Shown here: in pieces, positions 10,022-25,895 of the stretch
Layout of the letters: every line of letters starts with the position of its first letter
How positions within the stretch are numbered: position 1 is the stretch's first letter
Assembly: GCA_038883435.1 (NCBI GenBank)
Contig: JAVZMD010000001.1
Span: 9,411-65,815, forward strand
From: Thermoproteota archaeon
Lineage (GTDB): Archaea; Thermoproteota; EX4484-205; JAAOZP01
Length of the DNA: 56,405 nt
Direction of reading: 5' to 3'
Program-made: the position numbers and the translations under genes
The notes under the pieces: generated by a model
What the model was told of the DNA's origin: nothing
The model's database searches: none
The model's input: the letters and a program-made list of their open reading frames with translations, nothing else

Positions 10022-10025
10022 AAAG

Positions 10026-10625
10026 CTAGACCTCCAGTAACATCCCCTTTGGGCCAGGGTTTACGACAAGCGTGTTTCCAATTCTATCTGATAAGCCTGC
10101 TCTCTCATGAACATGGCCACATAGGCAGAGCAATGGAGACTCTTCTTCTATGAACCTCCTAAGCTCAACAGAGCCGATGTGCTCACCAGAGTGAGTAAGG
10201 TCTAGAGCAGTGTTGAAAGGCGGACTGTGGGATAGGAGGATAAGGTTCCTAGAGCCCTTGAAACCGGAGAGTATCTTCCTGAAACCGTCTTCATCCATTT
10301 CAAAGGGGGTTTTGAAAGGAGTGTAGAGACTCCCACCGACACCGGCGAAAGTAAATCCTTTAAATTCGACCTTCCTTCCATGGACAAAGATAAGCCCCTT
10401 GGCAATAGCCTTCTTCCCCAATTCTTCAGGAGACTCATTATTCCCAGGTATTATCATCACATGATCGTTTAGACTCCTAAGGCTTTCCAAAGCAACATCC
10501 AAGCCCCTGTTGAAAACAGTGATGTCGCCAAGGCAGATGGCGGCGTCGACATCTCTAGATTTTTGAAAAGCTTCTTCAAGTAAGTTGAGCTTCAAGTGCA
10601 AGTCTGAGCATGCGAACAGCCTCAA
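10026..10625 (-). CDS. Calcineurin-like metallophosphoesterase
   Basis: Motifs SDLH, GDITVF (GD), IPGNNE (GNHE-like), LLSHSPP and CGHVHE, in canonical order. Confidence 0.75.
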   Translation of the reverse strand: MRLFACSDLHLKLNLLEEAFQKSRDVDAAICLGDITVFNRGLDVALESLRSLNDHVMIIPGNNESPEELGKKAIAKGLIFVHGRKVEFKGFTFAGVGGSLYTPFKTPFEMDEDGFRKILSGFKGSRNLILLSHSPPFNTALDLTHSGEHIGSVELRRFIEEESPLLCLCGHVHERAGLSDRIGNTLVVNPGPKGMLLEV

Positions 10626-10681: not shown

Positions 10682-11170
10682 CTAAGGAAGTTGAACAGTC
10701 ATTTTATAATCGATATTGTTTGAAGAACGGAAGCTCAGGCTAATAGTCACACCGCTTGTTAAAACCCCTCCCCCGCATGAAGCACCCAATGGGAGCGTGA
10801 GGTCTACGTCGACATTCACGCCAGTATTCAATGGTATGGGAAAACTGTTTCCAGACTCGCCGTTTTCAGAAACCCAAGAGAGAAAAGCCCCCTCTATATC
10901 TTCAAGCGGGACATTGTTTACTAGAACAGTACTGACTCGAGCTAATGATCCTCCAATATTTTTCAAACGTGTCCTTATTTTGAACGATCCTCCTTCCAAA
11001 CTGCATCCCTGTAAGCCTGCTTCTATCTTCTCATAGCTCGCAAACGATCCTACTAAACCAGTTACCCACAGCATGACGGCTATCGCAATAGCTATCCCAA
11101 CAGCCGTTATGATTACTGCCGTGATAACTGGGCTTATTCCTCTTTTATTACTTAAAGGGGTAGGGGGCAA
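10682..11170 (-). CDS. Archaeal type IV pilin (class III signal peptide, pilin paralogue 1)
   Basis: N-terminus ...NKRG|ISPVITAVIITAVGIAIAIAVMLWVTGLVG is the archaeal pilin/flagellin N-terminal domain pattern. It is 162 aa with a beta-rich C-terminal part. The N-terminal 45 aa are near-identical to 13811-14287. Confidence 0.8.
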   Translation of the reverse strand: MPPTPLSNKRGISPVITAVIITAVGIAIAIAVMLWVTGLVGSFASYEKIEAGLQGCSLEGGSFKIRTRLKNIGGSLARVSTVLVNNVPLEDIEGAFLSWVSENGESGNSFPIPLNTGVNVDVDLTLPLGASCGGGVLTSGVTISLSFRSSNNIDYKMTVQLP

Positions 11171-11253: not shown

Positions 11254-12036
11254 TTATCTTCCAAGTATGACTCTAACTATTACAAGTGCTAGTTGCAAGA
11301 GAATATCTCCGTATACTAGGCGTATAGCAAGGCCGAGCAATATTAAAACTTGAAGTGGTATTAGGAAGCTGGTGAAAACGTAATCCTCATCCTTAAAGCC
11401 CCTAACAGCCCCCTCCCTGAAATCTTCAATGAACACTATCCTTCTAACACCGCGTCTACTATACTTCTCAGCCAGTACAAACTTAGAAGGGTTTGAACGG
11501 CAATGCGAGAACCTTATCTTCATCAACAGGAATAATGCGAAAAACCTCCGATGAAGTCCCTCTTCTTCCAATCCCTTAAAAAGCTCAACACCCCTTATCT
11601 TCATGGAAATATTCCAGAGGAAGTTGAAAACAGGGAATATCAGGCTAAGTATTAAAGCATTGTTTAAAGCGGAAAGCGGTTCGGTAAGCCTCCCCATGCT
11701 AAGCTCAACCATGAAGCCAGTTATGGAAGTAGGATACATTATGCTTAGGCATATCAATGATTTTGCGTCGGCACCGCCGAAGGCGCCTGCGAAAGCACCA
11801 AGATAGTATAAAGCTATGAAAAGCGCCGATTGCACCCCTGCAAACAGGGCCCAGCCTAAAATATCAACAAACCCTTCTAAAACCCCGGCTAGGTTTATGA
11901 ACAGGGCTAAGGCTATGAACACCATCCAAACACGGTTATCTATCTCCCTCTTCTTAACATCTTGAAAAGAGCTTATTGAAAGGAGAATTATTGAAACTAC
12001 GCTCCTAGCGTAGTAAAGCGTATACTCGTCAAGCAA
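11254..12036 (-). CDS. A24-family prepilin/preflagellin peptidase (PibD/FlaK-like)
   Basis: Polytopic membrane protein with SSFQDVKKREIDN (first Asp) and AFGGADAKSL (GxGD-type second Asp). The TTG start lies 1 nt after the ATPase stop, consistent with translational coupling. Confidence 0.8.
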   Translation of the reverse strand: MLDEYTLYYARSVVSIILLSISSFQDVKKREIDNRVWMVFIALALFINLAGVLEGFVDILGWALFAGVQSALFIALYYLGAFAGAFGGADAKSLICLSIMYPTSITGFMVELSMGRLTEPLSALNNALILSLIFPVFNFLWNISMKIRGVELFKGLEEEGLHRRFFALFLLMKIRFSHCRSNPSKFVLAEKYSRRGVRRIVFIEDFREGAVRGFKDEDYVFTSFLIPLQVLILLGLAIRLVYGDILLQLALVIVRVILGR

Positions 12037-12037
12037 T

Positions 12038-13663
12038 TCATCTCAGTTTAGACAGGACCTCAGCTCTCTTAACGTGGAACTCCGTGACCACTCTGGCCAC
12101 GTCCCTGAAGTGAGTAATATTGTTAGCCATCATCCACCTTATAACGCTCTCCCTAACCTGAAGCTCCCTGACATACCAGTCTGGAGGCATGCCTGATTTA
12201 CGGCAGATATTCGGAAGGTGAACGGACTTGCTGAAGTCGATTTCGAAAGTGTCTTCAACAGGGTTCCATGATGCCACGTTTATCCTATTGCCCTCAGGGT
12301 CAAGCTCCCAGACCTGCCTAACCCTCCTTCCAAACGGCACACCCGCCTTCTTAGGCAAGACAACCCTCTCGACGAGGACTGCAACGTTCATCAGCGGGAT
12401 ATAGGATTCAGCGATGTTCATCGGCGGGCTCGTCATCCTTTTGATAGCGTACTCGATGTTCTCTGCGTGTACTGTACTCAAGCCACCGTGGCCAGTAGCC
12501 ATCGCCTGGAACATGACGAATGCTTCAGCACCCCTGATCTCGCCGACGATCAGGTAGTCAGGCCTGTATCTCAGAGAGGTCTTGACGAGGTCGAACATTG
12601 TTATCTCACCTATCTTAGACGTTCCAAGGCCATAGCTCTCCCTAGTGACGAACTGAACCCAGTTATCGTGCGGTATATTAAGCTCAGCCGTCTCCTCTAC
12701 GGTAACTATCTTGAGACCGGGTCTGAAAAGATTGGTTAAAGCATTCAGGAAAGAAGTCTTACCAGCACCCGTACCGCCTATGATTATGATCGTAAGCCTA
12801 TTATCAAGGATGAACCAGAAGTATGCTGCGAGAGCAGGGCTTAACGAACCCAGGTTGATAAGGTCGATGACGCTGAAAGGCTCCTCCCTGAACTTCCTGA
12901 TGGTGAACGTTGAGCCGAAGGTAGAGACCTCGTCACCATAGGTTGCGGCAAGCCTGTGCTTACCAGGCAGCATAGCGTCAACAATCGGGAATGCTGCACT
13001 AATATGCTTCCCAGCAAAATGCGCCAGCTTAATTATGAAATCGTTGAAATACCCCTTGTCCATTATCTTAAGATTGGACGGTAAGCTCTCATACCTCTTA
13101 TGCCAGACGTAAATAGGCTTGTTAACACCATCACAGGAAATGTCCTCAATATTCTTATCCTCGATAATTGGGTTTATAGGGCCGTAGCCTATGAGGTCCC
13201 TCCTAATGTAGTACTCTATCTTCTGAATAGACTCTTGGTTGAGAGAGCCTAGAACCCCCTTATACTTCTTCATAAGCCTCCTAGCCTCTTCGAAAACATG
13301 CCTCCTAGCTTCAACAGACATGTCCTCAGGCGGGCGGAGCTCCCTGCTGAGAATATCCTGAAGCTTCTCGAAAGCACTCTTCTCCTGCTTAGTCAAAGTA
13401 ATCTCGTCGATGAAATAACCCTTCTGACCACCCCTGCCAGGTATGGGCGCTATAACAATCTTAACGAAAGGCTCCTCAATCCAGTAGACGTCTACGAAGT
13501 CGACACCAGTGGGGAGAGGCTCGAGAACATATTCGACAACCTCCCTCTCCTCCTTCTTCTTTTTCTTCTCCTCAGGCTTAGCCTCTTTCACAGGAGGCGG
13601 GACAGTCTTAGCCTCAGCCACAGCGGGATTAGACTTGTTCTCCTCGGCCTTCGCAGAGCTCAT
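12038..13663 (-). CDS. Type II/IV secretion-family ATPase (FlaI/PilB/VirB11-like pilus assembly ATPase)
   Basis: Walker A IIIGGTGAGKTSFLNAL, Asp box/Walker B PDYLIVGEIRGAEA, His box MATGHGGLSTVHA. It has a Lys/Glu-rich low-complexity N-terminal extension (PEEKKKKKEERE). Confidence 0.9.
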   Translation of the reverse strand: MSSAKAEENKSNPAVAEAKTVPPPVKEAKPEEKKKKKEEREVVEYVLEPLPTGVDFVDVYWIEEPFVKIVIAPIPGRGGQKGYFIDEITLTKQEKSAFEKLQDILSRELRPPEDMSVEARRHVFEEARRLMKKYKGVLGSLNQESIQKIEYYIRRDLIGYGPINPIIEDKNIEDISCDGVNKPIYVWHKRYESLPSNLKIMDKGYFNDFIIKLAHFAGKHISAAFPIVDAMLPGKHRLAATYGDEVSTFGSTFTIRKFREEPFSVIDLINLGSLSPALAAYFWFILDNRLTIIIIGGTGAGKTSFLNALTNLFRPGLKIVTVEETAELNIPHDNWVQFVTRESYGLGTSKIGEITMFDLVKTSLRYRPDYLIVGEIRGAEAFVMFQAMATGHGGLSTVHAENIEYAIKRMTSPPMNIAESYIPLMNVAVLVERVVLPKKAGVPFGRRVRQVWELDPEGNRINVASWNPVEDTFEIDFSKSVHLPNICRKSGMPPDWYVRELQVRESVIRWMMANNITHFRDVARVVTEFHVKRAEVLSKLR

Positions 13664-13810: not shown

Positions 13811-14287
13811 CTAAGGCAGAACCACGCTGGTGAAGTATTCTTTCCCACCGGTCGAGTGGAGCTTAATAGTCACAGTTACGCCTGCGTTAAGAGTCTGGCT
13901 GCCTGAGCTAGCACCAGCGGTTATTGTTATATTTGCCTGTTTTTGTGTTCCAACAGGCGCGTCCCAATACTGGTTAGGAGGACTTATCGGAGGATCTGGT
14001 GTTATACCCTGCCATCCGTCAAAGGGAATATTGTTGATGAAAACATTGTCTATCTTGGCTGGTGTGGAGCCAGTGTTTATGTAGGTAATTCTAATTACCC
14101 ATCCTCCTCCTTGTTGTTGAGGATCGGCGTACGCGCTCCTTATCTCAACCTTCTCATAGCCCATGAATGCTCCAACCAATCCTGTCATCCATAGTGCTAC
14201 CGCTATGGCTATTGTTATGCCTACTGCGACGATGATTACTGTTGTGATAACTGGGCTTATACCCCTCCTGTCTTTCAGAAGCCTCAA
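13811..14287 (-). CDS. Archaeal type IV pilin (class III signal peptide, pilin paralogue 2)
   Basis: MRLLKDRRG|ISPVITTVIIVAVGITIAIAVALWMTGLVG, 158 aa. It ends ...TSVVLP, like the paralogue (...MTVQLP). TTG start preceded by gaggtga. Confidence 0.8.
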   Translation of the reverse strand: MRLLKDRRGISPVITTVIIVAVGITIAIAVALWMTGLVGAFMGYEKVEIRSAYADPQQQGGGWVIRITYINTGSTPAKIDNVFINNIPFDGWQGITPDPPISPPNQYWDAPVGTQKQANITITAGASSGSQTLNAGVTVTIKLHSTGGKEYFTSVVLP

Positions 14288-14659
14288 ACCATGTTCACCT
14301 CTCCGCGTGTTTTAACAAACGTTAAATTAGTATTTAAGTGTTTTTAATGCATGGAAAATACTTACGACGAACTATATACCTTCACTTTTTTCTTCCTGTT
14401 CACGACATTTTGTCTCGCAACGAATGCTGGAGAATGAGCAATTTTTCAGTTTAAATCTGTTTTTAAAAGTTTTTAAAGATTCAATTTTCCCATTTCATCC
14501 TGTTGTTTTTCTAATGATTAGAATTGTGAGTATCTGCACGCTTTCTGTTAACACTCGTCTTGTTTAAACCCTGCTTGTTCTAAAATGATTTTTACCATAT
14601 AATTGTTAATGAAAATTGAAAAAGAATATAAAGGGTTTCAAAGATTCTAATATTAAGGT
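14288..14659. promoter_or_regulatory. 372-nt A/T-rich divergent intergenic region between pilin (minus) and platform operon (plus); presumed bidirectional promoter region
   Basis: Seen in the sequence: no ORF of 60 aa or more, and many A/T-rich TATA-like strings (tttaaatc, tttttaaaag, tttaaag, aatataaag). Exact promoters are not assignable without transcript data. Confidence 0.4.
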
Positions 14660-16468
14660 TTGTCGCTTACCGGGTTTGCTACGATGATGTTCGGCTCCCT
14701 GGGGGATGCTGTTGCAAAGCTCTGCGGAGACCTTGAGGCGTCTGGCATAAGGCTCTACCCCCGGGCATACGGCTCTCTTGTTCTATTCGCAACATTCATG
14801 ACAATCATAGTCTCAGTCATCCTATCGAGTTTCTTCGTAGTCGGCTACACGTTCTTCTCCATAAGGCTGGGTATCTTCGGGGAGATTTTCATCATACCGG
14901 CTTTGATAATGAGCCTGCCTGCGATAGTTTTCCTCATAGGTATTGGTTGGCCTAGGATGAAGGTCTCAGGCATAAGCTCATCCCTCTCTTCAGAGGTTCC
15001 CTATGCTGCAGCGTATACCGCGGTGATGTCTACTGGAGGAATCTCACCCTATGCCAGCATTATGAGGCTTTCAAGGGTACCGTTGTTGCCGACTTTCTCT
15101 AAGACTGCGAAGCTGCTCGACCTGATGGTTAGAGGCTTGGGTTATGACCCTGTTACCGCTTTGGAGGAGATTGGTAAGAAGCTTCCCTCTAAGGATTTTA
15201 GGGAGCTCTTGCTGGGCTATGCTTCAACGCTTAAGACTGGTGGCGACGTTGTCCATTATTTGCTTCGAAGAACAGAGTTGCTTTTCCAAGAGAGGCTTGA
15301 GAACCTTAAGATGATAGGCGGCAGGCTTGGTCAGATAATGGAGGTATACATGGTTATAGCGCTCCTCCTACTACTCGGCATCTACACGATCTACGCTGTC
15401 CAACTCTCCGTCGGAGAACTTTTGGGTGGTGGTGGAGGCTTCTTCGGAAGCGTCTACGGCTTCATGCTTTTCAGCTACGTTTTCCTACCCTTCATCTCCC
15501 TCATCTTCCTCTGGATGATCGACGTTGTCCAACCTAAGTATCCGATGGAGGACAATTCTCCCTATGTTGTTTTCGCAGCCACGGGATTGCCGATACTTGC
15601 GATACTTGTTCCAAGCTTCTACCTCTCGTTCATCATGCCGGGCTTGAGGATAATCCCCGTCTTCGATATTCTAGCTAGAATAATGGAGAGATTGGTAACT
15701 CTCCTTGGTCTTGAAAAGGGCTACGAGCCCACTATCGGTCTTACGCTAACTCTCATGATAGCAACTATTCCAGCAATGGCTTACAGGATTGGGATAAGCA
15801 TTAGGGAGAAGGGTATGGATATTGGCTTCTCAGGCTTCTTGAGAGATCTTGTTGAAATCAGGAAGTCCGGCTTAAGCCCTGAGAAGTGTATAATCAACCT
15901 TTCAGAGAGGAACTACGGTAAGTTATCAAAGCATATTAAGACAATGGCTACTCAGATCTCCTGGGGCATAAGCCACTCTAAGATATACGAGACCTTCTCA
16001 AAGCATGTCAGGTCTTGGTTGACTAAGATAAGCATGTTCCTACTGTTGGACGCTATCGAGGTCGGTGGTGGAACACCTGAGACGCTTGAGACGCTTGCGC
16101 AATTCAACGAGTCTATTATACTCATGGAGAAGGAGAAGAGGAGCGAGCTTAAACCATTGCTCTCAATACCCTACATAGGGACTGGTGTATTGGTTATAAC
16201 GGTCATAGCCTTGTTAACATTTTTCAGATCCATGCTTCTAATGGCTGGCAGGTCCATGGCATTCGTCGACATATTGCACCTGCTATTGCCTCCTGTGATA
16301 ATCCACGTTTACATGATGGGCCTCGTAGGGGGTAAGATAGCCTACGGAGAGGTCTCTCAGGGCTTCCTCCACTCATTCCTCTTGCTAATCTTCACACTCG
16401 TCACGATAATCCTCTCGCCTTACTACTCTTTCGCACCTGTGCCAACGGGCGGGGGGACGATTGGTTAA
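14660..16468 (+). CDS. FlaJ/TadC/GspF-family polytopic platform protein of the type IV pilus-like machinery
   Basis: 602 aa with alternating clusters of TM helices and two cytoplasmic helical domains (a duplicated T2SSF-like architecture). It sits opposite the ATPase/peptidase arm. Confidence 0.85.
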   Translation: MSLTGFATMMFGSLGDAVAKLCGDLEASGIRLYPRAYGSLVLFATFMTIIVSVILSSFFVVGYTFFSIRLGIFGEIFIIPALIMSLPAIVFLIGIGWPRMKVSGISSSLSSEVPYAAAYTAVMSTGGISPYASIMRLSRVPLLPTFSKTAKLLDLMVRGLGYDPVTALEEIGKKLPSKDFRELLLGYASTLKTGGDVVHYLLRRTELLFQERLENLKMIGGRLGQIMEVYMVIALLLLLGIYTIYAVQLSVGELLGGGGGFFGSVYGFMLFSYVFLPFISLIFLWMIDVVQPKYPMEDNSPYVVFAATGLPILAILVPSFYLSFIMPGLRIIPVFDILARIMERLVTLLGLEKGYEPTIGLTLTLMIATIPAMAYRIGISIREKGMDIGFSGFLRDLVEIRKSGLSPEKCIINLSERNYGKLSKHIKTMATQISWGISHSKIYETFSKHVRSWLTKISMFLLLDAIEVGGGTPETLETLAQFNESIILMEKEKRSELKPLLSIPYIGTGVLVITVIALLTFFRSMLLMAGRSMAFVDILHLLLPPVIIHVYMMGLVGGKIAYGEVSQGFLHSFLLLIFTLVTIILSPYYSFAPVPTGGGTIG

Positions 16469-17234
16469 GCTAATAAAAGATGGTAGAGGAATATCCGACG
16501 CCATAGTGACAACCATACTTTTTGCTACGTTCATAACGATATGTGTTTCAGCGCTCTTCTACGCTCAGCTCAATCTCACTATACAGAGCGAGCAGGTGGA
16601 TTTGGAGAATGCTAAGAGGAGCATGATCAGCCTAGCCGATACTATTTCAAGTTTAGGCAAAAAGGGTCAGGCAGCGTACGTTAAACTATCTTCGAAAACC
16701 GGAGGACTATGGGTTACTAGAGAAAGTAGGATCAGGATAAGAATCGGAGGCGAAACCTACGAGTACGATCTCACGTTATTAAAGTTCAGGAGTAACGCCC
16801 CCTCCGGAGGATTCCAGGTCTTCAAGGGTCTTCAAAACTACAATCCGGCTGATTTTTTAATAGTCAGCCCCGACTCACCAGGCCCCTTGGGGTGGGTTTA
16901 CCTAAACCGCTCCTATGGAGCATGGATAATAGTCGACTTTGGAAGGGTTAGAATAGTGCCAACTGGAAAGATTAGCGTTCAGGGGAGTAACTACACGGTG
17001 GTTGACGTAACATACTTCAACATAGTTCCAGGGTCTTTCAGCGGAACAGACGTTTTCAACGTATGCGTGAAAGTAAGGGATGTTAAGGTTGAAACAATAT
17101 ATACTGCCCCATCTGCTAGGATAACTGTTGAAAGGGGAGTGTACAGTAAATCGTACGATATCCCTTATGAGAATGATGTTCAGGGGGCCATAGTTTTCCT
17201 AAACATTGTGGAGGTTGAGGTTTCAACGGGGTGA
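16461..17234 (+). CDS. Pilin-like protein with class III signal peptide, uncharacterised (paralogue A)
   Basis: MVKLIKDGRG|ISDAIVTTILFATFITICVSALFYAQLNLTIQSEQ. It overlaps the platform gene by 8 nt. It is clearly paralogous to 17240-18157 (blocks QLNLT[IM]QSEQ, ENAK, GAWII[VI]DFGRVR, YFNI, VEVS). Confidence 0.7.
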   Translation: MVKLIKDGRGISDAIVTTILFATFITICVSALFYAQLNLTIQSEQVDLENAKRSMISLADTISSLGKKGQAAYVKLSSKTGGLWVTRESRIRIRIGGETYEYDLTLLKFRSNAPSGGFQVFKGLQNYNPADFLIVSPDSPGPLGWVYLNRSYGAWIIVDFGRVRIVPTGKISVQGSNYTVVDVTYFNIVPGSFSGTDVFNVCVKVRDVKVETIYTAPSARITVERGVYSKSYDIPYENDVQGAIVFLNIVEVEVSTG

Positions 17235-17239
17235 CGTAA

Positions 17240-18157
17240 ATGCTTCCAGAATCAAGATTTTTATCAATTACATCTGATGGAAAAGGAGTATCTCAAGCAA
17301 TAACCACTGTAATACTCGTCATGGCAGTAATGTCAGTGAGCCTTGCAGCCTTCTTCTTTACTCAGTTAAACCTAACTATGCAAAGCGAGCAGGCTGAGTT
17401 TGAGAATGCTAAGGAGGCAATGGTTAATCTAGCTCGGATTATTGAAAATCTTGAGGAAGGAGATGCGCAATATCTCACTCTATCGATTAATAATGGTGGG
17501 CTAGAACTAACTAGAGGATTAGAAAATATTCGGATTACAATCTGGAGTGAAGATGATTTGAGCAAACCCCCTGTATCCTTGAATTTGGGTAAAGTTAACC
17601 TTATTAAAATAAGAGGTGGTGCAGGAGTCTCTGGACCATCTTTCCGTGTGTTAAAAGGAGATAGAAGTATTAATGATAAGAATACTCTCTTAAACAGATA
17701 TATTATTATCAGTCCTGACAATCCTAGTCCCATGGGTATAGTGTATCAGGAATGGGACAGGGGAGCTTGGATTATTATTGACTTTGGAAGAGTCAGAGCT
17801 ATGCCTTCTGGTACAATCCTCCAAACAGATAATGGGGAAAAATGGTATAGGGTCAGTACTGTCGATATAGTTTACTTCAACATAACATTTGGGGAAATCA
17901 GCAGTAGTGGTGGAACATATAACTTTCATGTGAGAATTAAGGATGTGAAAAGATATGATCCAGAAAAATTCCATTCCTCAACGGTAAATATTCATGTTGA
18001 AAGATGGTCTGAAGATGGTCTGATACACTACGAAAATAGATGGGAGTATGAATGGAGGCCAAGTGATTCTGATACTTCATCAAGTGATAATAGATGGAAT
18101 CTTTATTGGACTCTAGTTTACTTAACAGTAGTGAACGTGGAGGTCTCCGTGAGGTGA
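17240..18157 (+). CDS. Pilin-like protein with class III signal peptide, uncharacterised (paralogue B)
   Basis: ...TSDGKG|VSQAITTVILVMAVMSVSLAAFFFTQLNLTMQSEQ. The ATG lies 5 nt after the upstream stop and is preceded by ggggtga. 305 aa. Confidence 0.7.
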   Translation: MLPESRFLSITSDGKGVSQAITTVILVMAVMSVSLAAFFFTQLNLTMQSEQAEFENAKEAMVNLARIIENLEEGDAQYLTLSINNGGLELTRGLENIRITIWSEDDLSKPPVSLNLGKVNLIKIRGGAGVSGPSFRVLKGDRSINDKNTLLNRYIIISPDNPSPMGIVYQEWDRGAWIIIDFGRVRAMPSGTILQTDNGEKWYRVSTVDIVYFNITFGEISSSGGTYNFHVRIKDVKRYDPEKFHSSTVNIHVERWSEDGLIHYENRWEYEWRPSDSDTSSSDNRWNLYWTLVYLTVVNVEVSVR

Positions 18158-18162
18158 TTTGA

Positions 18163-18723
18163 ATGCCCTCTTCAGCCTTTGAAACAGCCATCTTGACGAC
18201 AGCCCTCTATGGTATAATGCTGATAGTCATAAACATGTTTTCAATAGTCTCTCAATGGGTCTTCATAGACTCGTTGAAGATAAGGCTCAATGAAATAGCC
18301 AACCAAGTTGCCTATGAGATAGCTGAAATATACTCAATGTGCGTACAGTCTAGGGAGGAGCTTGCGTTTTTCAAACCGATCGAAATACCCGTCTCCATAT
18401 CTGAACACGGTTATGCAATAGAGCTTAAGAAAATAGGGGAAGTATGGTATGTGGTTGTTTACTTAGAGGCCAATAGGGCGATAAACGCCTCATCGCCAAT
18501 ATGGGAGGACCCGGGTATTGCTGTTCACATTGGACCCAGGCTTATGGATGGGGATTCTTTTACAATCGTCAGGAACCATGGCCGATACACCATATACTAC
18601 GTTAAGGAAGATGGGGTCTTACATTCTGGAGTAAGTAAACCGGTCGTATGGGCCCGTAAATACAGGGCTGGAGACATGGTTGAAATCAGGGTGGGCCTAG
18701 GATGGCTAGTGGTAGGAGGCTGA
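18163..18723 (+). CDS. Uncharacterised protein with hydrophobic N-terminal helix (pilin-like accessory?)
   Basis: MPSSAFETAILTTALYGIMLIVINMFSIV. ATG preceded by gaggtgatttga, with a 5-nt gap to the upstream gene. I recognise no family. Confidence 0.55.
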   Translation: MPSSAFETAILTTALYGIMLIVINMFSIVSQWVFIDSLKIRLNEIANQVAYEIAEIYSMCVQSREELAFFKPIEIPVSISEHGYAIELKKIGEVWYVVVYLEANRAINASSPIWEDPGIAVHIGPRLMDGDSFTIVRNHGRYTIYYVKEDGVLHSGVSKPVVWARKYRAGDMVEIRVGLGWLVVGG

Positions 18724-18730
18724 TAGTAGA

Positions 18731-20020
18731 ATGCACGTGACCTTGGACAATGCTTTCGCCTTCTCCATCCTCGTACTCATACTCATAACCATCATGGGTT
18801 ATATTATCCCTTCAGCATACATGTCTTTCACAACAATTAAGGAACATCAGCTTGAGGAAGTTGCACAGTCAATAATGGACAAGATCCTATTCAGTCCGGG
18901 GGTTCCTGAGAACTGGGGAGATATAAACATAGTAAATTCGGAAAATGATCTGAAGGCCTTTGGCCTTCAGAAGGCAAACGGCTCATTATATGCGCTTGAT
19001 GTTGATAAGATTCTTAGAATAGCCTCAGTTAACACTACTACAAGTGTAACGTTGCCAAGCACCGTTAGAATAAGCCCAGATACCATAGCTAGGCTACTCG
19101 GCTTAGGTAATGAGTATGGCTTCAGCATAAGGGTAACGCCAGCGCTAAACATAAGTTTTGAAGTATTAGCTCTACACTGCATTAAGCAAACGGGTCATGA
19201 TTGTGTTTATTCCGTCCCAAGTAGGATAAGGGTTACTGTTAAGACTCCTGAGGGCAGGCCTGCAATAGGTGCTAATGTAACGGGGCTTTACATACTTACA
19301 ACCCTAGAGAAGGATCCTGGCAACCCTAACGATAGATTAGCCAATTTCACGTTTTTCTTCGTAAGGGATGTTACAGATTGGAAGGGTGAAGCCGAATTAG
19401 AATTCGAAAACCCATTGGAAGGTGTTAAAAATGAGAACAGGGATTTAAAAAACACGTGCACTAGCATGGTGGTTTACGTGGATTACCATGGTATTAGGGT
19501 TGTTAATTCTCATATTTTCCAAGACTACAGTGATTTCGATGATTTCCTTAACTCAATGATTATCGACAATTATCTGGTTTTAGAGTTCGATGATGCACCT
19601 ATTATTCCAAATGGTGCTAGGAAACTAAAGCATAGTGGAGTTAGAGTACCCGAGGTAGGGCTAGCAAATCCACCATACTATATCTACCTCAGTGAATTAA
19701 AAGACATAACGGAAATCCCTCAAGGCTCCGGAGACTCAGGATGGATAATAAACCATGGTAACTTTAGGATACGTGTTTACAATCTTTCAAAAATTGTTGA
19801 CGATAATGTGGTCCTAATAATGTTGCCAGTGAGCGTGCCCACTTCGGGGGGTGGACGCCGTTGGATTCTCGTCAACTTCTTCAGAGAACCCTCTAACGTT
19901 ATTTGTCAAAAGGGGGTTGCTTCCGGGAATATTAAGACTAGCGTATTGAGGAGGATGGTTAGGATCGGCTCTTTCCACTATATTGTTGAGGTTAGGGTTT
20001 GGAGGTGGGGTGAACGTTGA
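18731..20020 (+). CDS. Uncharacterised 429-aa protein with hydrophobic N-terminal helix; probable extracellular beta-rich protein
   Basis: MHVTLDNAFAFSILVLILITIMGYIIPSA. The internal segment RIRVTVKTPEGRPAIGANVTG resembles prealbumin/CarboxypepD_reg-like Ig folds. It carries several N-x-S/T sequons. ATG preceded by ggaggctgatagtaga. Confidence 0.55.
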   Translation: MHVTLDNAFAFSILVLILITIMGYIIPSAYMSFTTIKEHQLEEVAQSIMDKILFSPGVPENWGDINIVNSENDLKAFGLQKANGSLYALDVDKILRIASVNTTTSVTLPSTVRISPDTIARLLGLGNEYGFSIRVTPALNISFEVLALHCIKQTGHDCVYSVPSRIRVTVKTPEGRPAIGANVTGLYILTTLEKDPGNPNDRLANFTFFFVRDVTDWKGEAELEFENPLEGVKNENRDLKNTCTSMVVYVDYHGIRVVNSHIFQDYSDFDDFLNSMIIDNYLVLEFDDAPIIPNGARKLKHSGVRVPEVGLANPPYYIYLSELKDITEIPQGSGDSGWIINHGNFRIRVYNLSKIVDDNVVLIMLPVSVPTSGGGRRWILVNFFREPSNVICQKGVASGNIKTSVLRRMVRIGSFHYIVEVRVWRWGER

Positions 20021-20502
20021 ACAGTAAGGGTCAGATGAGGGTTGTTGAAGCGCTTTTGGCAAGCGGGATAATAGTTATAGCGATGATTATGACGATAAGC
20101 CTAACCAGAGCCCCTAATCCTTATAGTGCGAAGTCCAGGGTTGAGCTTGAGAAGTATTCTTACGATTTTCTGATGAGCCTGGCTGAGCAGGAGGTTTTCG
20201 ACAAGGTAATTTTTAAATCCGAGAATATTAGAGATGACTGGGAGGGTTTAATGAAAAACATGCTTAACGCTCTCCTGCCTCCCAACATCCTATATAACAT
20301 GACTGTTTATAACATGACTGAAGTAAGGATAGAGATTGGTGGAACCAATACTACTATTGTTGTACATAAACCGCTGGGGACTGTTTCAAACGCTTCGCCG
20401 GAGGATTTCAGGATTGCTGGAGAGGCTGCCGGTGCGGACATAACATATACAACAAGGAGGAGATGGGTATTGAAAATACACCTTGAGCTCGCCAGGAGGT
20501 GA
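20017..20502 (+). CDS. Small pilin-like protein with class III signal peptide, uncharacterised
   Basis: MNSKG|QMRVVEALLASGIIVIAMIMTISL. TTG start overlapping the upstream stop by 4 nt and preceded by ggaggtggggtga. 161 aa. Confidence 0.6.
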   Translation: MNSKGQMRVVEALLASGIIVIAMIMTISLTRAPNPYSAKSRVELEKYSYDFLMSLAEQEVFDKVIFKSENIRDDWEGLMKNMLNALLPPNILYNMTVYNMTEVRIEIGGTNTTIVVHKPLGTVSNASPEDFRIAGEAAGADITYTTRRRWVLKIHLELARR

Positions 20503-23500
20503 AAAGAATTTGCCTGAAAAAAATTATTGGGATAAGGGTCAAATAATACTCGTAATGTGCATGACGCTTGTTATAGTAATAATTTCCGTTGCTACAATAA
20601 TATACTTAACCTCAACTCACCACCTTTTCTTTAACTACAACCCCAGCAGAGAGATAATACTGAGCATAGATGCTGATTTCGAAAGAGCTTTGACAAGGAT
20701 TCTTGCAAACGCTACTATGCAATACAATAAGACAAGAACTGTTGATTCAGATGTGGATGAGATGGAGGAAGCTAGGTTATTAGCTAATAAAACATTTTCA
20801 TACTGGTTCTTAGCCACTCAAGCAGCATATTCAGGTAAGGGAGTAAATATTGAAGCTGATTGGATAGATGACGTAATACAGAGAGAGAAGGATATGCCAA
20901 TAAGAATCGGTTGGATCTCCAAACAAGGCCATCCTGGACAAATTAATCCTATTCCTGTTCAACATTATCCTACTAGAAGCCTTGAAAGTAAACTTGTAAA
21001 ATTATTCTGGTACAGGCCCAGTAGTATCTCTGCCATAGGCTCTAGGATTAAAATAGACTCCGTCATTAACGGAATAGTTGGATGGGAATCCACTCATATC
21101 GTCCTGCTAAACCTAACCATAACCTCAATATGGTCGGATGAGAGAAATGAACTTGTTTACTATAACGTGGTTGTTTTGAGGGAGAACGAGGAGCCTGTTA
21201 ATGACCTCAAGGAGGAGAGCTTCGAACTATACTGGTTCGACCCAACTACTCCGCCTGGAGTATTTTGGTGGAGGAGAGCCAAGGGAGATGAGATAACCGC
21301 AACATACAACGGTGGAGGTAATTATACGCTCACGCTTAAACCTAGATTTGCTAATGATCAAAGCGATAAGAAAAAGTTCTTTTGGAATTGGGGGGCTGAT
21401 AATAATTATGTGCCCGGCTACTACCGGTTTGTAATAGTCAGAGTCAAAGACAATAGGGACATTATCGTAGAGGCATATAGCTACTCCGGTATAGAATACG
21501 TAATACAGGAGAAAGCTGTTGAACCACATTATCCTAATAATCCCGCTAAGACAAAGGAGACATATGTCTTCGAGCTTCTTCCAAACGGGACTATGTATTG
21601 GTTTGAAGATAAGCTTATTTGTAGTTCTAAAGTCTGTCCAATACCTTTTCCTCCAGTTAAACAATTAAGAGTAAACGTTACAGTCAACTATGATGAGGAT
21701 ATTAGTAATTCTAGAAAACTTAGATTCATAGAAGCGCCTTACCAGGTTGAAATCTGGGACAACAGGTATCTCTGGCCGAGTAGCACTAATTTCTTAGGGT
21801 GGAGAAAAAGGTTTATGAATGGGAGCAAACTGGTCTTTGAAGTTACCTATCCGCCAGGATGCGCGAGACAAGCAGTAAGGGTATTTTGGGAGGATGATTG
21901 TGATGCGAAAATTCCAGAGTATAGGATTGAGATGAAGGTAATCGATGGGGTTGGGAGAATAGATACAGGATCAAAAACTTCTGCTAAAAATAGCTATATT
22001 ATATGGGTTCTTGTCGACAAGTTGAGGGCTCAGAACATTTTCGAACATCTCGATTGGTCGATAAGCTTTAGGGATAGGGCAAACGTGTCTCACGTCGAAT
22101 ACATTTTACCAGCGTATGATTCTTATTTATCAGATCATTACTATATTCCTATTAAATTCCCCGAAGATATGTGGAATATAGTCCCTGAACCAAAGGAGGA
22201 TCCTGAAAATCCCAATGTCAGAATCTCGAGAGCTCCAGTCAGGATTGTGTTATTCAGAAGGTCAGATAGAGTAGTTTACACTTCTCCACATCCGCAGCAA
22301 GGTAAGGAAGTATTGCCAAAGGAGCTCTATTATGAGGATATTATCTACATTCCGTATAATGTTTCATACTTCCTATACCGTATTAATGCGAGTTGGCTAA
22401 GAGACGTGAAAATAGAATACAGCTATCTTGTTTTCGCAGGCATAGTGGGAGGTTTTCCCGATAATGATGATATTCCACTGACACTAAGATGGTTTAAATG
22501 GGGGTCGTTGCTTAAACCAGATGGTACAGTAATCAATGGGACTTTCAATAATGAAATAAGGCCTAATGTAGGGTATTATATGCCTCACAGAGGCCATGTT
22601 TTAGGTCAGAAGTATGGAGACGGAAGTTACTCTTACTGGATAGCGTTGTATAATGAAAGCTGGGGCGCAGGCTTATTTGTCTCGCAACAATTTCTAGATA
22701 TGTTAGATCTTTATGGAAAAACGTATAAGAAAAGGGATAGAGAAACTGACCAGCTTTTCGTATGGACTAGAGACTTGGGTGCAAGTCGCTTTATGGAATA
22801 TGACGCAATAACTCTCGAGAGATATGGGGATTTTCAGCAGAGTGTAGAGATAAAACGTGATAAGACACCTAAGATAGAACTTAAATTCGCAGGCTTCATG
22901 CTTAGAGGAGGGGTGGCAGACGAAAACACAAAATATGATAATGATAATGATTGGAATGATGGTGGAAGAACTTATGCAAGGCCTTTTACTGTACTATATG
23001 ATTCTGCTGGTAGTGCCGGTATTTCAGATATTCAGCGTGAGGGCAGATCTGCTTTTGCCTATGATGATTTCTCAGAGAACCCGTTCTCCAACGGTAAGCT
23101 TATCACATCTAATCCAAATTATTGGACTTATGATCAGAACAATGGTTTAATAAGCGGAATAGCTCCAGATGGTTCCTTCACTACAGCCCATTTCTCTCAG
23201 AGCATTAAACCCGGAACTAGGACTGTTAACATACTTGCTAAGGAGAGACACATTACATCTGCCAGTGGCCAGTACTCAGGCTTAATGCTTTCAGAAGGGG
23301 TTTCTTCACAAAGTAGGTTCTACACTCTAAGCTTCTTCCGTACTACAAGAGGTACTAATAACAACTTTAGAAGACTCGGAATATTGAGGTATTCTCCACC
23401 TAACTCTTGGAATCTTATTAGTCAAACACCAAACTCTGTGAGCTTAAACCTAGGAGATAATGTATGGTTCATTTTCTACGGGAGTAGGACACTTCAAGGA

Positions 23501-24046
23501 ACTGGATGGGGTTCTATGGCATTAACAGTCTACGATTCTCAAGGTAATCCGATAAATGGTGCATCACTAAGTTGTACGGATACGAGTATTCCTAGTTTAA
23601 GTTCAGTGGGTCTTTGTATACGTGACGAAAATAGTGACAGTAATGGGAATACAATAAGAGCTGATTTCGACTTCTTCATAGCCTGTTCTGATGCCGATCC
23701 TCGAATAGTTACTGTTAAGAACGTCTGCTCAGGATACAGAGTTATCATTAGGGATAGATATGGCAACGTTGTAGCTCAGGCAACAGCTACTTCCGATACT
23801 GTAACACTAAATGTGATTAAAAATCCAGTAATTAGAAATGGATGCATTGAGATATTAAATAATCAAGGCAATCTGCTTTTCTCAAAAACTTTTGAAAATG
23901 ATTTTATTCTTGGAGGGGATGTTTATAGATGTATTCTAAGCGAAGCCCCACTAAATCCTGTCAAAGAATGCAATATGTACTATAGAATGTTTACATGTAG
24001 ATCACAAGATATGCCTGAGATAATAGATATCGGAGCAGCATATTAA
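20483..24046 (+). CDS. Giant (about 1,180 aa) pilin-like-N-terminus surface protein, uncharacterised; candidate tip adhesin
   Basis: ...EKNYWDKG|QIILVMCMTLVIVIISVATIIYL. The more likely start is TTG at 20510, 6 nt after ggaggtga and 7 nt after the upstream stop at 20500-20502. It carries at least a dozen N-x-S/T sequons. The C-terminal third is beta-rich, with the Ig-like segment VTVKNVCSGYRVIIRDRYGNVVAQATATSDTVTLNV. Confidence 0.65.
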   Translation: MSSPGGEKNLPEKNYWDKGQIILVMCMTLVIVIISVATIIYLTSTHHLFFNYNPSREIILSIDADFERALTRILANATMQYNKTRTVDSDVDEMEEARLLANKTFSYWFLATQAAYSGKGVNIEADWIDDVIQREKDMPIRIGWISKQGHPGQINPIPVQHYPTRSLESKLVKLFWYRPSSISAIGSRIKIDSVINGIVGWESTHIVLLNLTITSIWSDERNELVYYNVVVLRENEEPVNDLKEESFELYWFDPTTPPGVFWWRRAKGDEITATYNGGGNYTLTLKPRFANDQSDKKKFFWNWGADNNYVPGYYRFVIVRVKDNRDIIVEAYSYSGIEYVIQEKAVEPHYPNNPAKTKETYVFELLPNGTMYWFEDKLICSSKVCPIPFPPVKQLRVNVTVNYDEDISNSRKLRFIEAPYQVEIWDNRYLWPSSTNFLGWRKRFMNGSKLVFEVTYPPGCARQAVRVFWEDDCDAKIPEYRIEMKVIDGVGRIDTGSKTSAKNSYIIWVLVDKLRAQNIFEHLDWSISFRDRANVSHVEYILPAYDSYLSDHYYIPIKFPEDMWNIVPEPKEDPENPNVRISRAPVRIVLFRRSDRVVYTSPHPQQGKEVLPKELYYEDIIYIPYNVSYFLYRINASWLRDVKIEYSYLVFAGIVGGFPDNDDIPLTLRWFKWGSLLKPDGTVINGTFNNEIRPNVGYYMPHRGHVLGQKYGDGSYSYWIALYNESWGAGLFVSQQFLDMLDLYGKTYKKRDRETDQLFVWTRDLGASRFMEYDAITLERYGDFQQSVEIKRDKTPKIELKFAGFMLRGGVADENTKYDNDNDWNDGGRTYARPFTVLYDSAGSAGISDIQREGRSAFAYDDFSENPFSNGKLITSNPNYWTYDQNNGLISGIAPDGSFTTAHFSQSIKPGTRTVNILAKERHITSASGQYSGLMLSEGVSSQSRFYTLSFFRTTRGTNNNFRRLGILRYSPPNSWNLISQTPNSVSLNLGDNVWFIFYGSRTLQGTGWGSMALTVYDSQGNPINGASLSCTDTSIPSLSSVGLCIRDENSDSNGNTIRADFDFFIACSDADPRIVTVKNVCSGYRVIIRDRYGNVVAQATATSDTVTLNVIKNPVIRNGCIEILNNQGNLLFSKTFENDFILGGDVYRCILSEAPLNPVKECNMYYRMFTCRSQDMPEIIDIGAAY

Positions 24047-24494: not shown

Positions 24495-24809
24495 ATGCTG
24501 CTTTTGAAGAATATAAGGTACACGGTTGTTGGAGGCCTGGCGATTAAAGCCGTGGAGCAGGCCATAGAGGCACTGGCTTCTCTCGATGGTTTGCATTTCC
24601 ACACTAATCCTAGGAATGCACATGCCAATCGGATAATGTGGGTTAAGAAGAATTTTCCAGGGCTCTCGGGCTACGTGGACATGCTGTGGGGTGCGTATGG
24701 TACGCTTGGCTACGAGGGGGTTGATGGTGAGAGAGCTGGGAGAGTATTGGAGGCTATGGAGGCGATTCTAGATGGACTCGAAGAGGAGACTGGAATACGA
24801 TTTAAGTAG
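24495..24809 (+). CDS. Small alpha-helical protein, possible HEPN/PaREP1-like partner of the downstream nucleotidyltransferase
   Basis: 104 aa with a helical pattern (AIKAVEQAIEALASL...HTNPRNAHANR). Its 3' end overlaps the start of the nucleotidyltransferase ORF by 38 nt, a toxin-antitoxin-like arrangement. I could not find a canonical Rx4-6H motif. Confidence 0.3.
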   Translation: MLLLKNIRYTVVGGLAIKAVEQAIEALASLDGLHFHTNPRNAHANRIMWVKKNFPGLSGYVDMLWGAYGTLGYEGVDGERAGRVLEAMEAILDGLEEETGIRFK

Positions 24810-25415
24810 CTTGATCGAAGAGATTTCCTCTATCAGGGAGGTTATTGCGATAATACTTTTCGGAAGTAGGGCTAGGGGGATTACGACGAGTATTCTGACT
24901 ACGACCTGCTCGTGGTGTTCACGGATAGGGAGAGCATGTGGAGAAGGTGGAGCGAGCTTTTCCAGAAGGTTGGTAGCTTCAGTCTTCTGGTTCATCTGAT
25001 TCCGAAGAGTCTCAGCGAGTTTACCAGTAGTGAACCGACTTTCCTAGGAGAGGTCTTAAAGCATGGAAGACTGCTTTACTCCAAGTACCCGTTTCAATCT
25101 TCCCTAGTGCCTTTGAACCTTCAACGCGTGAAGATCATTGCATACAGCATGAGGAGGCTGAAGCAGGAGGATAAGATGAGACTCATCTATAGGCTTTACG
25201 GTAAGAAGGGGGATGAGAATAAAGGGCTCGTCAAGAAGCTACGTGGTCTAAAGGTCTGTGAAGGATGCATAATCATGCCTGAGGAGAATGCTGGAGCAGT
25301 CTTAGAGGCTTTGAGGAAGCAGGGGGTGGAAGTAAAATCCTTCGATGCTTACATTCCTAGAGACAAGTTGGAACTCGTGGAAAGCTGGTATGCTAAGCAT
25401 GTGGTTAAAAAGTAA
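24772..25415 (+). pseudogene. Minimal nucleotidyltransferase (MNT, Pol-beta superfamily) with about 100-aa C-terminal extension, split by a frameshift in a G5 run
   Basis: Frame 1 gives ...REVIAIILFGSRARG (the GSxxRG NTase motif), then nonsense. The next frame continues DYDEYSDYDLLVVFTDRES..., the expected acidic DxD continuation. The switch is at ggggg 24875-24879; six Gs would restore GSRARGDYDEYSDYDLLVVF. Confidence 0.7.
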
Positions 25416-25778
25416 CCGGCCGATTAGGGTTATTTATTCCCCATGACTTTTAAGTCCTTTTGACTATCTTTGCCCCCGACGTGTTTCAGACAGTTCTATC
25501 TAGAGAATCGGTTTAACCCATCTGCTCGTTTTTCTCAGCATCAGAAAAATCCTCATCATGAAAAATCGATTTCTCCTCTATGACTGTAGAAAGCACTTTA
25601 GATAACTTGCTTATGATAAGATCTGGCTCAGCAGCTTCAGGCTTGGCCTAGTTCTATTCCTTGTACTGTTACTATGTGTGCCTACAGGACCTCATTGCTT
25701 CAACATCGACTACATTGCGAAAATCCCTCTACCGCTCCTCCCTTCTCTGAATGGGCTGAATGATAAGGGAGTTATTTT

Positions 25779-25883
25779 TCACTCCATCCTTCTCAATGCG
25801 TATCTGTATATTAAGTCGGTGATTTTGTAAAGCCCGTTTTCATCCTTCATTATTCCAATTATAACCAGTTTGGAGAATAGGCT
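25779..25883 (-). pseudogene. Remnant encoding only the C-terminal wHTH tail of an archaeal ATPase (PF01637-like) paralogue
   Basis: My minus-strand translation is SLFSKLVIIGIMKDENGLYKITDLIYRYALRRME*, bounded upstream by a stop. It aligns with the tail of the pseudogene at 27162-27719 (LLSKLVKIGLVEKEK/NGLYKIAKPIYGHALRRTR*). Confidence 0.45.
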
Positions 25884-25895
25884 TCAGATCATTGA

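Follow-up and report, generated by a model that had tools for sequence, protein, structure and literature searches.

A five-family cassette of pilin-like genes in a Thermoproteota type IV pilus locus, counterpart of a haloarchaeal cassette and candidate for a priming or tip complex

A 56,405-nucleotide stretch of DNA from a Brockarchaeota-like Thermoproteota archaeon (assembly GCA_038883435.1, contig JAVZMD010000001.1; the whole stretch is called the window below) carries a complete archaeal type IV pilus locus, one of the type IV filament (TFF) systems, in which the ATPase, platform protein, peptidase and pilins are all found. Directly downstream of the platform gene, six coupled genes for pilin-like proteins encode five families, here called A to E, and this cassette is the hot-spring counterpart of a catalogued haloarchaeal cassette, of an experimentally uncharacterised kind, rather than a new system. 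What is new here is the resolution of the six genes into five families, their breadth across Thermoproteota, their mapping onto haloarchaeal domains of unknown function (DUFs), the apparently leaderless nature of families B and C, and the modular structure of family E with its lectin-like domain. The reading that we favour, to which we give a probability of about 0.5, is that the cassette encodes a minor-pilin complex that primes assembly or sits at the tip and carries a swappable adhesin; its anatomy, its conservation and the evidence from predicted folds support this proposal.

Six coupled genes and five protein families

The original prediction, which was made from the sequence alone, placed six + strand open reading frames (ORFs) at 16461-24046 after the platform gene, and all of them were recovered at these coordinates and with the same junctions of -8, +5, +5, +7, -4 and, when the last gene starts at the TTG codon at 20510, +7 nucleotides (nt). 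Family A is present in two copies: P1 (16461..17234, + strand, 257 amino acids (aa)) is a pilin-like protein with a predicted class III signal (GRG|IS motif, where the bar marks the cleavage site) that resembles DUF7289 and arCOG02911, and its paralogue P2 (17240..18157, +, 305 aa) is 40% identical to it and has the motif AWII(V/I)DFGRVR in common with it. Family B consists of P3 (18163..18723, +, 186 aa), a DUF7266-like, apparently leaderless pilin-like protein with the N-terminus MPSSAFETAILTT, and family C of P4 (18731..20020, +, 429 aa), which is apparently leaderless and tentatively DUF7287-like, and for which an AlphaFold2 model predicts an N-terminal helix followed by beta-sandwich domains. 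Family D is represented by P5 (20017..20502, +, 161 aa), a pilin-like protein with a class III-type signal ([KR]G|QMR(V/I)VE motif) that is probably DUF7288-like, and family E by the giant P6 (20483/20510-24046, +, 1187/1178 aa). The module of six pilin-like genes that had been proposed is therefore real, but it is made up of five families, with P1 and P2 as paralogues. The idea that the five families are themselves recent paralogues was rejected beyond P1 and P2, the hhalign similarity among them being confined to the N-terminal helix.

Each of P2 to P6 is preceded by a GGAGG/GAGGTGA-type motif, in agreement with the ribosome-binding sites called originally. The start of P6 at 20510 has such a site and equals the start of a 100% identical protein of 1178 aa at NCBI (P0001), and the 1187-aa form has no exact record among the catalogued encoding contigs. 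The tight junctions and internal ribosome-binding sites fit stoichiometric co-expression, and the right arm of the locus is one operon, which runs from the platform gene through A, A', B, C, D and E. A hydrophobic N-terminal helix had been noted in every product, and a Kyte-Doolittle scan found exactly one hydrophobic segment, at the N-terminus, in each (6/6). Antisense ORFs of 82-145 aa at 17362-18191, 19814-20062 and 21227-21664 (- strand) overlap P2, P4 and P6, and are taken to be mechanical ORFs rather than genes because the + strand genes that they overlap are strongly conserved.

Conservation and modularity of the cassette

A check of synteny, which the original prediction had proposed, found the gene set kept beside type IV pilus cores beyond what chance would yield: ~20 independent loci in metagenome-assembled genomes, with identities as low as 27-30%, have the order platform-A-B-C-D-E, and their lineages include Brockarchaeota, Bathyarchaeia-like archaea and Methanomethylicia. 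A BLAST survey of all fetched loci (given L numbers where one must be named) found this order in every sufficiently long locus except L026 and L027, and the closest relatives also keep the divergent arm that carries ATPase, peptidase and pilin genes. In L026 no A-like gene was recognised between the platform gene and B in this survey, and in L027 (9950-13032) the A-like gene lies 3' of E, not before B, an arrangement that it shares with the haloarchaeal cassette and with the set of Archaeoglobus fulgidus tabulated by Makarova et al. (PMC4858521). The 4.3 kb upstream of the platform gene showed no ATPase gene in L003 or L004.

Word-indexed homologue searches gave families of 21-42 proteins, and exhaustive HMMER raised family A to at least 241 clusters. 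When 1.84 billion representatives of 50% identity clusters were searched with the family-A profile, 241 clusters matched at E <= 1e-3 and 166 at E <= 1e-10, and one family-A cluster bears a Bathyarchaeota label; a tblastn search of plasmids with a family-A member gave no match. For P6, a word-indexed search of 5.8 billion proteins returned 33 homologues from metagenome-assembled genomes of Thermoproteota, Brockarchaeota and Methanomethylicia, all annotated as hypothetical, as are the 42 homologues of family C, and 24 loci came from a scan that took one genome for each GTDB species. In two distant loci from sediment metagenomes (L033 and L034), A comes directly after a T2SSF gene and is followed by B, C, D and E, which are recognised by the family HMMs built here at E-values of 1e-26 to 1e-68.

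The cassette is also found alone, with no nearby ATPase or platform gene, in Marsarchaeota group 1 (L029:8524-14756), in a further lineage (L031:6382-13543) and on a plasmid of Salinigranum marinum (L040:5486-12624). In L029 its neighbours are housekeeping genes (for LysRS, AdoMet synthetase and pyrimidine biosynthesis). These cases suggest that stand-alone cassettes work in trans with a core encoded elsewhere, and because the cassette is found alone in L029 and L031 it is a discrete module separable from the assembly core.

Relationship to haloarchaeal families

In a search against Pfam and NCBIfam, none of the six products reaches the threshold of a curated family. The original statement that they belong to no characterised family holds to that extent, but it falls short in that the five families map onto haloarchaeal DUF7287, DUF7288, DUF7261, DUF7266 and DUF7289, robustly so for A and B and tentatively for C, D and E. 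The haloarchaeal plasmid loci, in Halobaculum halophilum and Haloferax (Hfx.) mediterranei, were reached by tblastn with the ATPase, and in both a platform gene is followed by five coupled genes whose products are assigned to Pfam DUF7287, DUF7288, DUF7261 (sub-threshold), DUF7266 and DUF7289.

Profile-profile comparison with hhalign, carried out on extended alignments, gave each of families A to E a different best haloarchaeal partner. Family A matched DUF7289, for which the haloarchaeal alignment was derived from the loci and held 3-4 sequences, with a probability of 92.7% (E-value 4e-7, 179 columns), and B matched DUF7266 at 83% (E-value 9e-6) over 58 columns that lie after the helix. The other partners were DUF7288 for D (41%, E-value 3e-4, 64 columns), DUF7261 for the N-terminus of E (22%, E-value 1e-3, 113 columns) and DUF7287 for C (26%, E-value 7e-4, 21 columns of a C-terminal motif). 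Controls with helices only gave probabilities of 10-36%. Pfam's own profiles agreed on the partners of A, B, D and E, with the E protein of L034 matching DUF7261 at an E-value of 0.04, and gave no match for family C; the gathering scores of these DUFs were not reached, the best being 17.5-22 bits against cut-offs of 27-27.6. Among individual proteins, P2 matches Pfam DUF7289 weakly (E-value 3e-3), the Marsarchaeota (L029) member of family B matches DUF7266 (E-value 4.5e-3), and seven of 14 members of family D match DUF7288 weakly (best E-value 1.4e-3).

Judged from these profiles, the homology of A and B to DUF7289 and DUF7266 is robust, that of D to DUF7288 is probable, and that of C and E to DUF7287 and DUF7261 is proposed tentatively. 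These assignments gain weight because the partners are one-to-one and because the sub-order C-D-E is common to both cassettes.

Class III signals and leaderless members

The K/R-G motif that had been read in P1, P2, P5 and P6 is conserved across their respective families, and a class III motif of the form [KR]G|(V/I/L/Q) persists in A, D and E in all lineages. Matches to TIGR02537 and Pilin_N are weak for the class III-signal filament proteins of the locus, and hhalign aligns the N-terminus of A with the PilA-like pilins of this same locus at a probability of 95.8%. Most relatives examined have one copy of A, of the P1 or the P2 type, and a few keep both.

No K/R-G motif is present in any member of B or C, and their ORFs are not extendable upstream, the listed start being the first start codon after an in-frame stop. 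Because the motif is never present and no upstream extension is possible, B and C are, as far as can be judged from sequence, leaderless. In most B-like and C-like proteins of haloarchaea a [DE]R[AG]| leader immediately precedes the aligned position, and P3 (18163) and P4 (18731) begin with Met and a few polar residues that match the mature +1 position of these counterparts. P3 and P4 would accordingly be 'leaderless pilins' that need no prepilin peptidase. The N-terminus of P3 is conserved in close relatives, but the xxAFxxxIL resemblance between P3 and P4 on which the original prediction had remarked is lost in distant members of the families; it is the absence of a leader that persists.

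The AlphaFold2 model of P4 (pLDDT 76.6, pTM 0.76) has a helix at residues 5-54 and then beta-sandwiches, for which Foldseek returned weak macroglobulin- or Ig-like matches and no enzyme, and a profile of family C found no relative among PDB sequences.

Family E, a pilin-like module with a variable, putative adhesion part

The N-terminal conserved module of P6 (20510..21259, +) comprises the class III signal, a long helix, a helical region and the first beta domain. Its signal has the motif KG|Q, in which Q11 is nearly invariant across family E, and the AlphaFold2 model (pLDDT 86.1, pTM 0.71) has helices at residues 7-41, 45-73 and 84-108, the remainder being all-beta. The central beta-rich core (21260..22984, +, residues ~251-825) is common to the long proteins and to variants of ~740 aa, which form the two size classes of the family E alignment; it is modelled as all-beta with high confidence, and no Pfam or PDB sequence match was found for it. 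Foldseek aligned long stretches with GH43 enzymes and sialidases, a hint of a propeller-like region in this part of the model.

The C-terminal insertion (22985..23956, +, residues ~826-1149, boundaries approximate), which spans ~325 residues and is absent from the ~740-aa variants, holds a predicted concanavalin-A (ConA)-like lectin beta-sandwich. In a Foldseek search of the PDB, P6 matched legume lectins and a lectin-like inhibitor (TMt 0.56-0.68, root-mean-square deviation (rmsd) ~5 A) and the L-type lectin domains of YwfG and of Staphylococcus epidermidis Aap; GH43 xylosidases gave the best E-values, yet with TMq 0.14 and an rmsd of ~25 A. Against a viral structure library the matches were LamG/ConA-type phage fibre and adhesin proteins, and the P6 orthologue of a Brockarchaeota locus (L001) matches Pfam GH43_C2 over the full profile (E-value 0.047). 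The GH43 match is explained by the non-catalytic ConA-like domain that GH43 enzymes carry at their C-terminus. The operon ends with a helix-strand element with a YYRMF motif and the stop codon (23957..24046, +), in which Y1157, M1160, F1161 and P1169 are at least 90% conserved, short variants included.

The C-terminal part of the protein varies among relatives. The family E member of L033, at 264 aa, is an N-terminal module only, other members are shorter at ~740 aa, and in L034 the C-terminal part consists of four InlB B-repeats (Flg_new_2, E-value 9e-20). Because this part is absent, shortened or replaced in these proteins, E is a conserved pilin-like N-terminal module joined to a variable adhesion part; it has no C-terminal membrane anchor, and a profile of E found no relative among PDB sequences. 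A second giant Flg_new_2 protein, of >2300 aa, is encoded just upstream on the opposite strand; the two Flg_new_2 genes are those at L034:1-3994 (-) and L034:12450-16061 (+).

Two other identities for P6 were considered and rejected. As a GH43 glycoside hydrolase it had matches to the non-catalytic ConA-like domain only and none to the catalytic domain, with GH43_C2 as the sole and weak Pfam match, and as a PilY1 homologue it gave no sequence signal, PilY1 being absent among the 50 Foldseek hits listed.

The pilus core and its flanks

The left arm of the locus lies on the - strand. It contains genes for two PilA-like type IV pilins that are candidate major pilins, a class III signal (prepilin) peptidase and the assembly ATPase. 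The first pilin (10682..11170, -, 162 aa) has a hydrophobic helix after an RG|IS class III motif, matches UpsA and arch_flag_Nterm weakly, below cut-off, and keeps its position in three relatives. The second (13811..14287, -, 158 aa), with the N-terminus RRG|ISPVITTVIIVAVGI, has weak Pilin_N, UpsA and arch_flag_Nterm matches, is kept in ~12 loci and matches haloarchaeal PilA-like pilins with an hhalign probability of 92.8%. The peptidase (11254..12036, -, 260 aa) matches Pfam Peptidase_A24 (E-value 2.8e-9, 37.8 bits against a cut-off of 26.5), is a multi-pass membrane protein and is kept beside the ATPase in relatives. The ATPase (12038..13663, -, 541 aa) matches Pfam T2SSE (E-value 2.5e-36) and falls under the NCBIfam equivalog cut-offs for archaellum FlaI (356 versus 550 bits) and BasE (228 versus 1000 bits). 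In L002 (1082-4174, -) and at the equivalent position in L014, the orthologous ATPase is 1030 aa long and has an intein inside the T2SSE domain, as judged from Pfam Intein_splicing and a faint LAGLIDADG_3 match; the ATPase of the window is intein-free.

The two arms diverge from an AT-rich intergenic region (14288..14659), which presumably holds the promoters of both. The right arm starts with the gene for the platform protein (14660..16468, +, 602 aa), a multi-pass membrane protein of the TadC/PilC/FlaJ family that matches Pfam T2SSF (E-value 4.4e-22) and scores far under the cut-offs for UpsF, BasF and ArlJ. An ATATAAA box at 14626-14632 lies ~31 nt 5' of its TTG start codon at 14660, and the gene has no ribosome-binding site. 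Because the platform gene has this box and lacks such a site and the internal cistrons have GGAGG-type sites, the arm fits the pattern expected of a thermoproteotal operon, with a leaderless first cistron followed by internal cistrons with ribosome-binding sites. A scan for bacterial-type promoters and terminators, a type of scan that is inapplicable to archaea, gave counts at or near shuffle level.

On the left, the locus is flanked (8101-10625, -) by genes for a Schlafen AlbA_2/HATPase_c_4/HTH protein (441 aa), an NTPase_1 protein (186 aa) and a metallophosphoesterase (199 aa), of which the last two also adjoin the pilus locus in L001 and L002. On the right, the next + strand ORF begins 450 nt downstream of P6, and the flank (24495-27146, +) holds two small ORFs with no Pfam match and an AAA_14 ATPase (416 aa). 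It looks like a variable region of the toxin-antitoxin or defence type because L002 holds HEPN, nucleotidyltransferase, AAA_14 and PIN genes at the same position.

Possible roles of the cassette

In the proposed mechanism, the N-terminal helices would hold the five proteins together in a single stoichiometric complex at the platform. The locus's own peptidase would cut A, D and E, and B and C, if made without a leader and starting at the mature-pilin start, would need no cutting. The complex would then prime assembly of the PilA filament and end at the pilus tip as its cap, where E would display an exchangeable adhesion part, here the ConA-like lectin domain, through which the pilus may bind glycans or polysaccharide. 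We infer complex formation, priming, tip location and glycan binding alike from the organisation described above.

Several observations weigh against a priming or tip complex. No sequence or fold likeness to bacterial minor pilins or PilY1 was found in Pfam or NCBIfam, among PDB sequences with the profiles of C and E, or among the Foldseek hits listed for P4 and P6. The arCOG03926 family, which is suspected to be E-like and includes a 959-aa protein of Archaeoglobus fulgidus, has been proposed as a major pilin, not a tip protein (PMC4858521). The D, E and C matches to haloarchaeal families are no stronger than N-terminal helices alone can yield, and the lectin assignment reflects similarity of a modelled fold only. 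N-glycosylation sequons show no significant enrichment in the six products, P5 weakly excepted, and hence provide no independent sign of surface exposure. Finally, leaderless B and C might stay in the membrane rather than enter the filament.

Brockarchaeota are described as plant polysaccharide degraders, and the cassette could instead build a short, cell-bound pseudopilus or surface raft in which the lectin-bearing E holds polysaccharide for degradation or uptake, an arrangement modelled on the class III-signal sugar-binding proteins of Sulfolobus with BasEF. A bindosome-like function of this kind, which we consider unlikely, would suit the carbohydrate-binding-type fold of E, for which ConA-like domains of GH43 xylosidases and lectins gave the best matches, and the fact that the cassette can be unlinked from core genes, as can bindosome substrates; TFF machineries have also been proposed to be 'functionalised' for substrate scavenging (Sivabalasarma and Albers). 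However, neither an ABC transporter nor a solute-binding protein fold lies in or beside the cassette, the BasE and BasF scores are far under their cut-offs, and the locus has two conserved PilA-like major pilins. In addition, E does not have a periplasmic binding-protein fold in its C-terminal part, which is InlB-type or absent in relatives, and this better fits general adhesion than a specific nutrient.

The lack of a cleavable leader from B and C in every lineage examined would also be expected if the cassette proteins, and these two especially, formed a membrane-anchored scaffold joining the platform to the S-layer, similar to archaellum ArlF/ArlG or bacterial PilMNOP, with E as a cell-surface or S-layer-associated protein and not a filament subunit. 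The model of C, a long helix with stacked Ig/macroglobulin-like sandwiches, has an architecture typical of a spacer, Makarova et al. liken such sets to the archaellum accessory set, and S-layer-like proteins are frequent in the loci (PMC4858521). Yet an anchor or collar appears still less likely than a bindosome-like raft, given that A, D and E keep the canonical class III signal that marks proteins for the pilus assembly pathway, that the haloarchaeal homologues of B and C bear class III-like leaders, that E has no C-terminal membrane anchor, and that no similarity to ArlF/G or PilN/O was found in Pfam, NCBIfam or the Foldseek search with P4. For PilB4-type euryarchaeal loci, arCOG03926 has been proposed as the major pilin (PMC4858521), and this raises a further alternative, in which A or E would be the major subunit of a distinct, thicker filament that uses the same ATPase and platform, with the other proteins as minor subunits. 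[quoted passage not shown] (PMC4858521); we regard it as very unlikely.

A wider version of the priming and tip-complex proposal, which as a joint claim is held only tentatively and is somewhat less than an even bet, is that the cassette is the archaeal counterpart of the bacterial priming/tip complex and has several further attributes. If true, it would be an ancient mobile module of Halobacteria, probably Archaeoglobi and many Thermoproteota, which pairs with different ATPase/platform cores; its two thermoproteotal 'leaderless pilins' would bypass the prepilin peptidase; and E would be a plug-in carrier of a lectin, of InlB repeats or of nothing. If it is true that the whole locus, not the core alone, is common to Thermoproteota and haloarchaea, the published 'hybrid origin' model for haloarchaeal clade 4C loci would need revision.

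Shaft structures of archaeal type IV pili have been solved, and we know of no archaeal tip complex that has been seen. This locus and the ~240 relatives of family A define a compact cassette of fixed composition that is an obvious candidate for starting and capping these pili and for setting their binding specificity, and the haloarchaeal link opens it to genetics in Haloferax and Halobacterium. The variable C-terminus of E suggests how uncultured archaea of hot springs and sediments may tune adhesion, here probably to glycans if the modelled fold is a guide, and leaderless B and C would be an unusual route into the pilus assembly pathway. If the proteins are merely ordinary minor pilins, the value lies mainly in that several Pfam DUFs and hundreds of archaeal proteins now called 'hypothetical' can be annotated better.

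Comparison with known systems

Bacterial minor-pilin complexes, for example GspH-I-J-K of the type II secretion system (T2SS) and FimU-PilVWXE with PilY1 of type IVa pili (T4aP), are regarded as initiators of assembly that also cap the filament, and modular lectin-bearing pilins exist, such as Streptococcus sanguinis PilC. Like the cassette, the bacterial sets, whose members are of low abundance, consist of four or five pilin-like proteins that are encoded together, one of which stands out by its size or by an adhesion or lectin module, and in both cases the accessory proteins are more numerous and larger than the major pilins. The globular parts of the cassette proteins are predicted to be beta-sandwiches, whereas the bacterial pilin fold is alpha-beta, and the cassette uses archaeal class III signals, with two members leaderless, unlike the bacterial sets. 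The analogy to minor pilins with a large tip protein that was drawn originally thus fits the anatomy of the cassette (class III signals in three of five families, a lectin-like domain and a variable C-terminus), but no homology in sequence or fold was detected.

Among archaeal systems, the Epd pilus of Methanococcus maripaludis (system 1) also has an operon in which several minor pilins with class III signals are encoded together with adhesin-like components, and genetic analysis has shown that its minor pilins are needed for normal piliation (bioRxiv 10.64898/2026.04.22.720090). It differs from the window in its ATPase clade, its two platform genes, its own peptidase EppA, and its gene set and sizes, and no similarity between Epd proteins and families A to E turned up in any search made. 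The Aap, Ups and Bas systems of Sulfolobales and the archaellum have the same core as the window (FlaI-type ATPase, TadC/FlaJ-type platform, PibD-type peptidase and PilA-like pilins) and lack the five-family cassette. The original prediction had named a match to one of their accessory sets as grounds for abandoning it, and none was found: NCBIfam scores against cut-offs were 73/400 for UpsF, 56/1300 for BasF and 26/130 for UpsA, and neither UpsX, AapX, Bas pilins nor ArlF/G/H/X were detected in the locus with NCBIfam. Because all equivalog cut-offs are missed, the locus is, on the basis of its protein sequences, not assigned to Aap, Ups, Bas or the archaellum.

The view that the cassette belongs to an undescribed system must be given up, since minor-pilin sets with adhesins have been predicted before (PMC4858521; bioRxiv 10.64898/2026.04.22.720090) and the haloarchaeal cassette is catalogued. 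Makarova et al. (2016) predicted such sets, with large adhesins, in crenarchaeal clade 4 loci, and for euryarchaeal sets they named arCOG02911, 250-550 aa long and prone to duplication, as the signature minor pilin (PMC4858521). In A. fulgidus the set comprises proteins of 190, 171, 105, 959, 262 and 305 aa, with two arCOG02911 genes last (Makarova et al., 2016, PMC4858521); judged by this published description, it looks like C-D-x-E-A-A, and we suspect that arCOG02911 is A-like and arCOG03926 E-like.

Subsystem 4A of Thermoproteota and Bathyarchaeota, clade 4A of Makarova et al. (2016), has accessory genes downstream of the platform gene and a PilY-like adhesin (Sivabalasarma and Albers, 2026, bioRxiv 10.64898/2026.04.22.720090), and its pilin-like components, of untraceable origin, have been proposed as a minor-pilin set with a large adhesin (PMC4858521; bioRxiv 10.64898/2026.04.22.720090); no experiments on the individual accessory proteins are reported in the literature consulted here. 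By description the window resembles 4A, as it comes from a member of the Thermoproteota and its accessory genes follow the platform gene. Membership of 4A is defined by arCOGs (arCOG11238, arCOG06117 and the adhesin arCOG) and by ATPase phylogeny. The minimal 4A system is described as having two platform genes and the window has one, and the 4A adhesin is called remotely PilY-like, whereas P6 has no Pfam match to the PilY1/PilC beta-propeller at E <= 0.1 and none among the 50 Foldseek hits listed.

The haloarchaeal cassette appears to match Halobacterium (Hbt.) salinarum pil-2 and Hfx. volcanii pilB1-C1, in which a clade 4C core is combined with a clade 2 pilin set. The former is transcribed as a seven-gene co-transcript in which three of five accessory ORFs are FlaFind-predicted prepilins (PMC4292770), and deletion of pilB1-C1 lowers adhesion (PMC6491452). 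A literature search yielded no paper on DUF7287-7289, and a search on pili of Brockarchaeota yielded nothing relevant.

As with the five families of the window, the five pilin-like genes of the haloarchaeal loci L036 and L037 are tightly coupled and follow immediately on the platform gene, and the A-like family is prone to duplication in both systems. The haloarchaeal order is C-D-E-B-A, in contrast to A-B-C-D-E in the window, with the same C-D-E sub-order. The C protein of the window is twice the size of DUF7287, its E protein has 1,178 aa with a lectin-like insertion versus ~320 aa for DUF7261 proteins, and its B and C proteins are apparently leaderless, whereas most of their haloarchaeal counterparts have [DE]R[AG]| leaders. 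The haloarchaeal cassette, too, can stand alone and bear adhesin-type domains, PKD and VWA, as in L040. There, a DUF7266-like (B-like) gene is fused to a PKD-domain region (L040:7571-9616, 681 aa), and a VWA-domain protein of >760 aa is encoded after the DUF7289 gene (L040:10341-12624). Because PKD in this locus is on a B-like protein and a VWA protein is also present, the adhesin-type domain can sit on different members of the cassette according to lineage. The closest relatives of the hot-spring cassette are the haloarchaeal DUF cassette and, by description, subsystem 4A.

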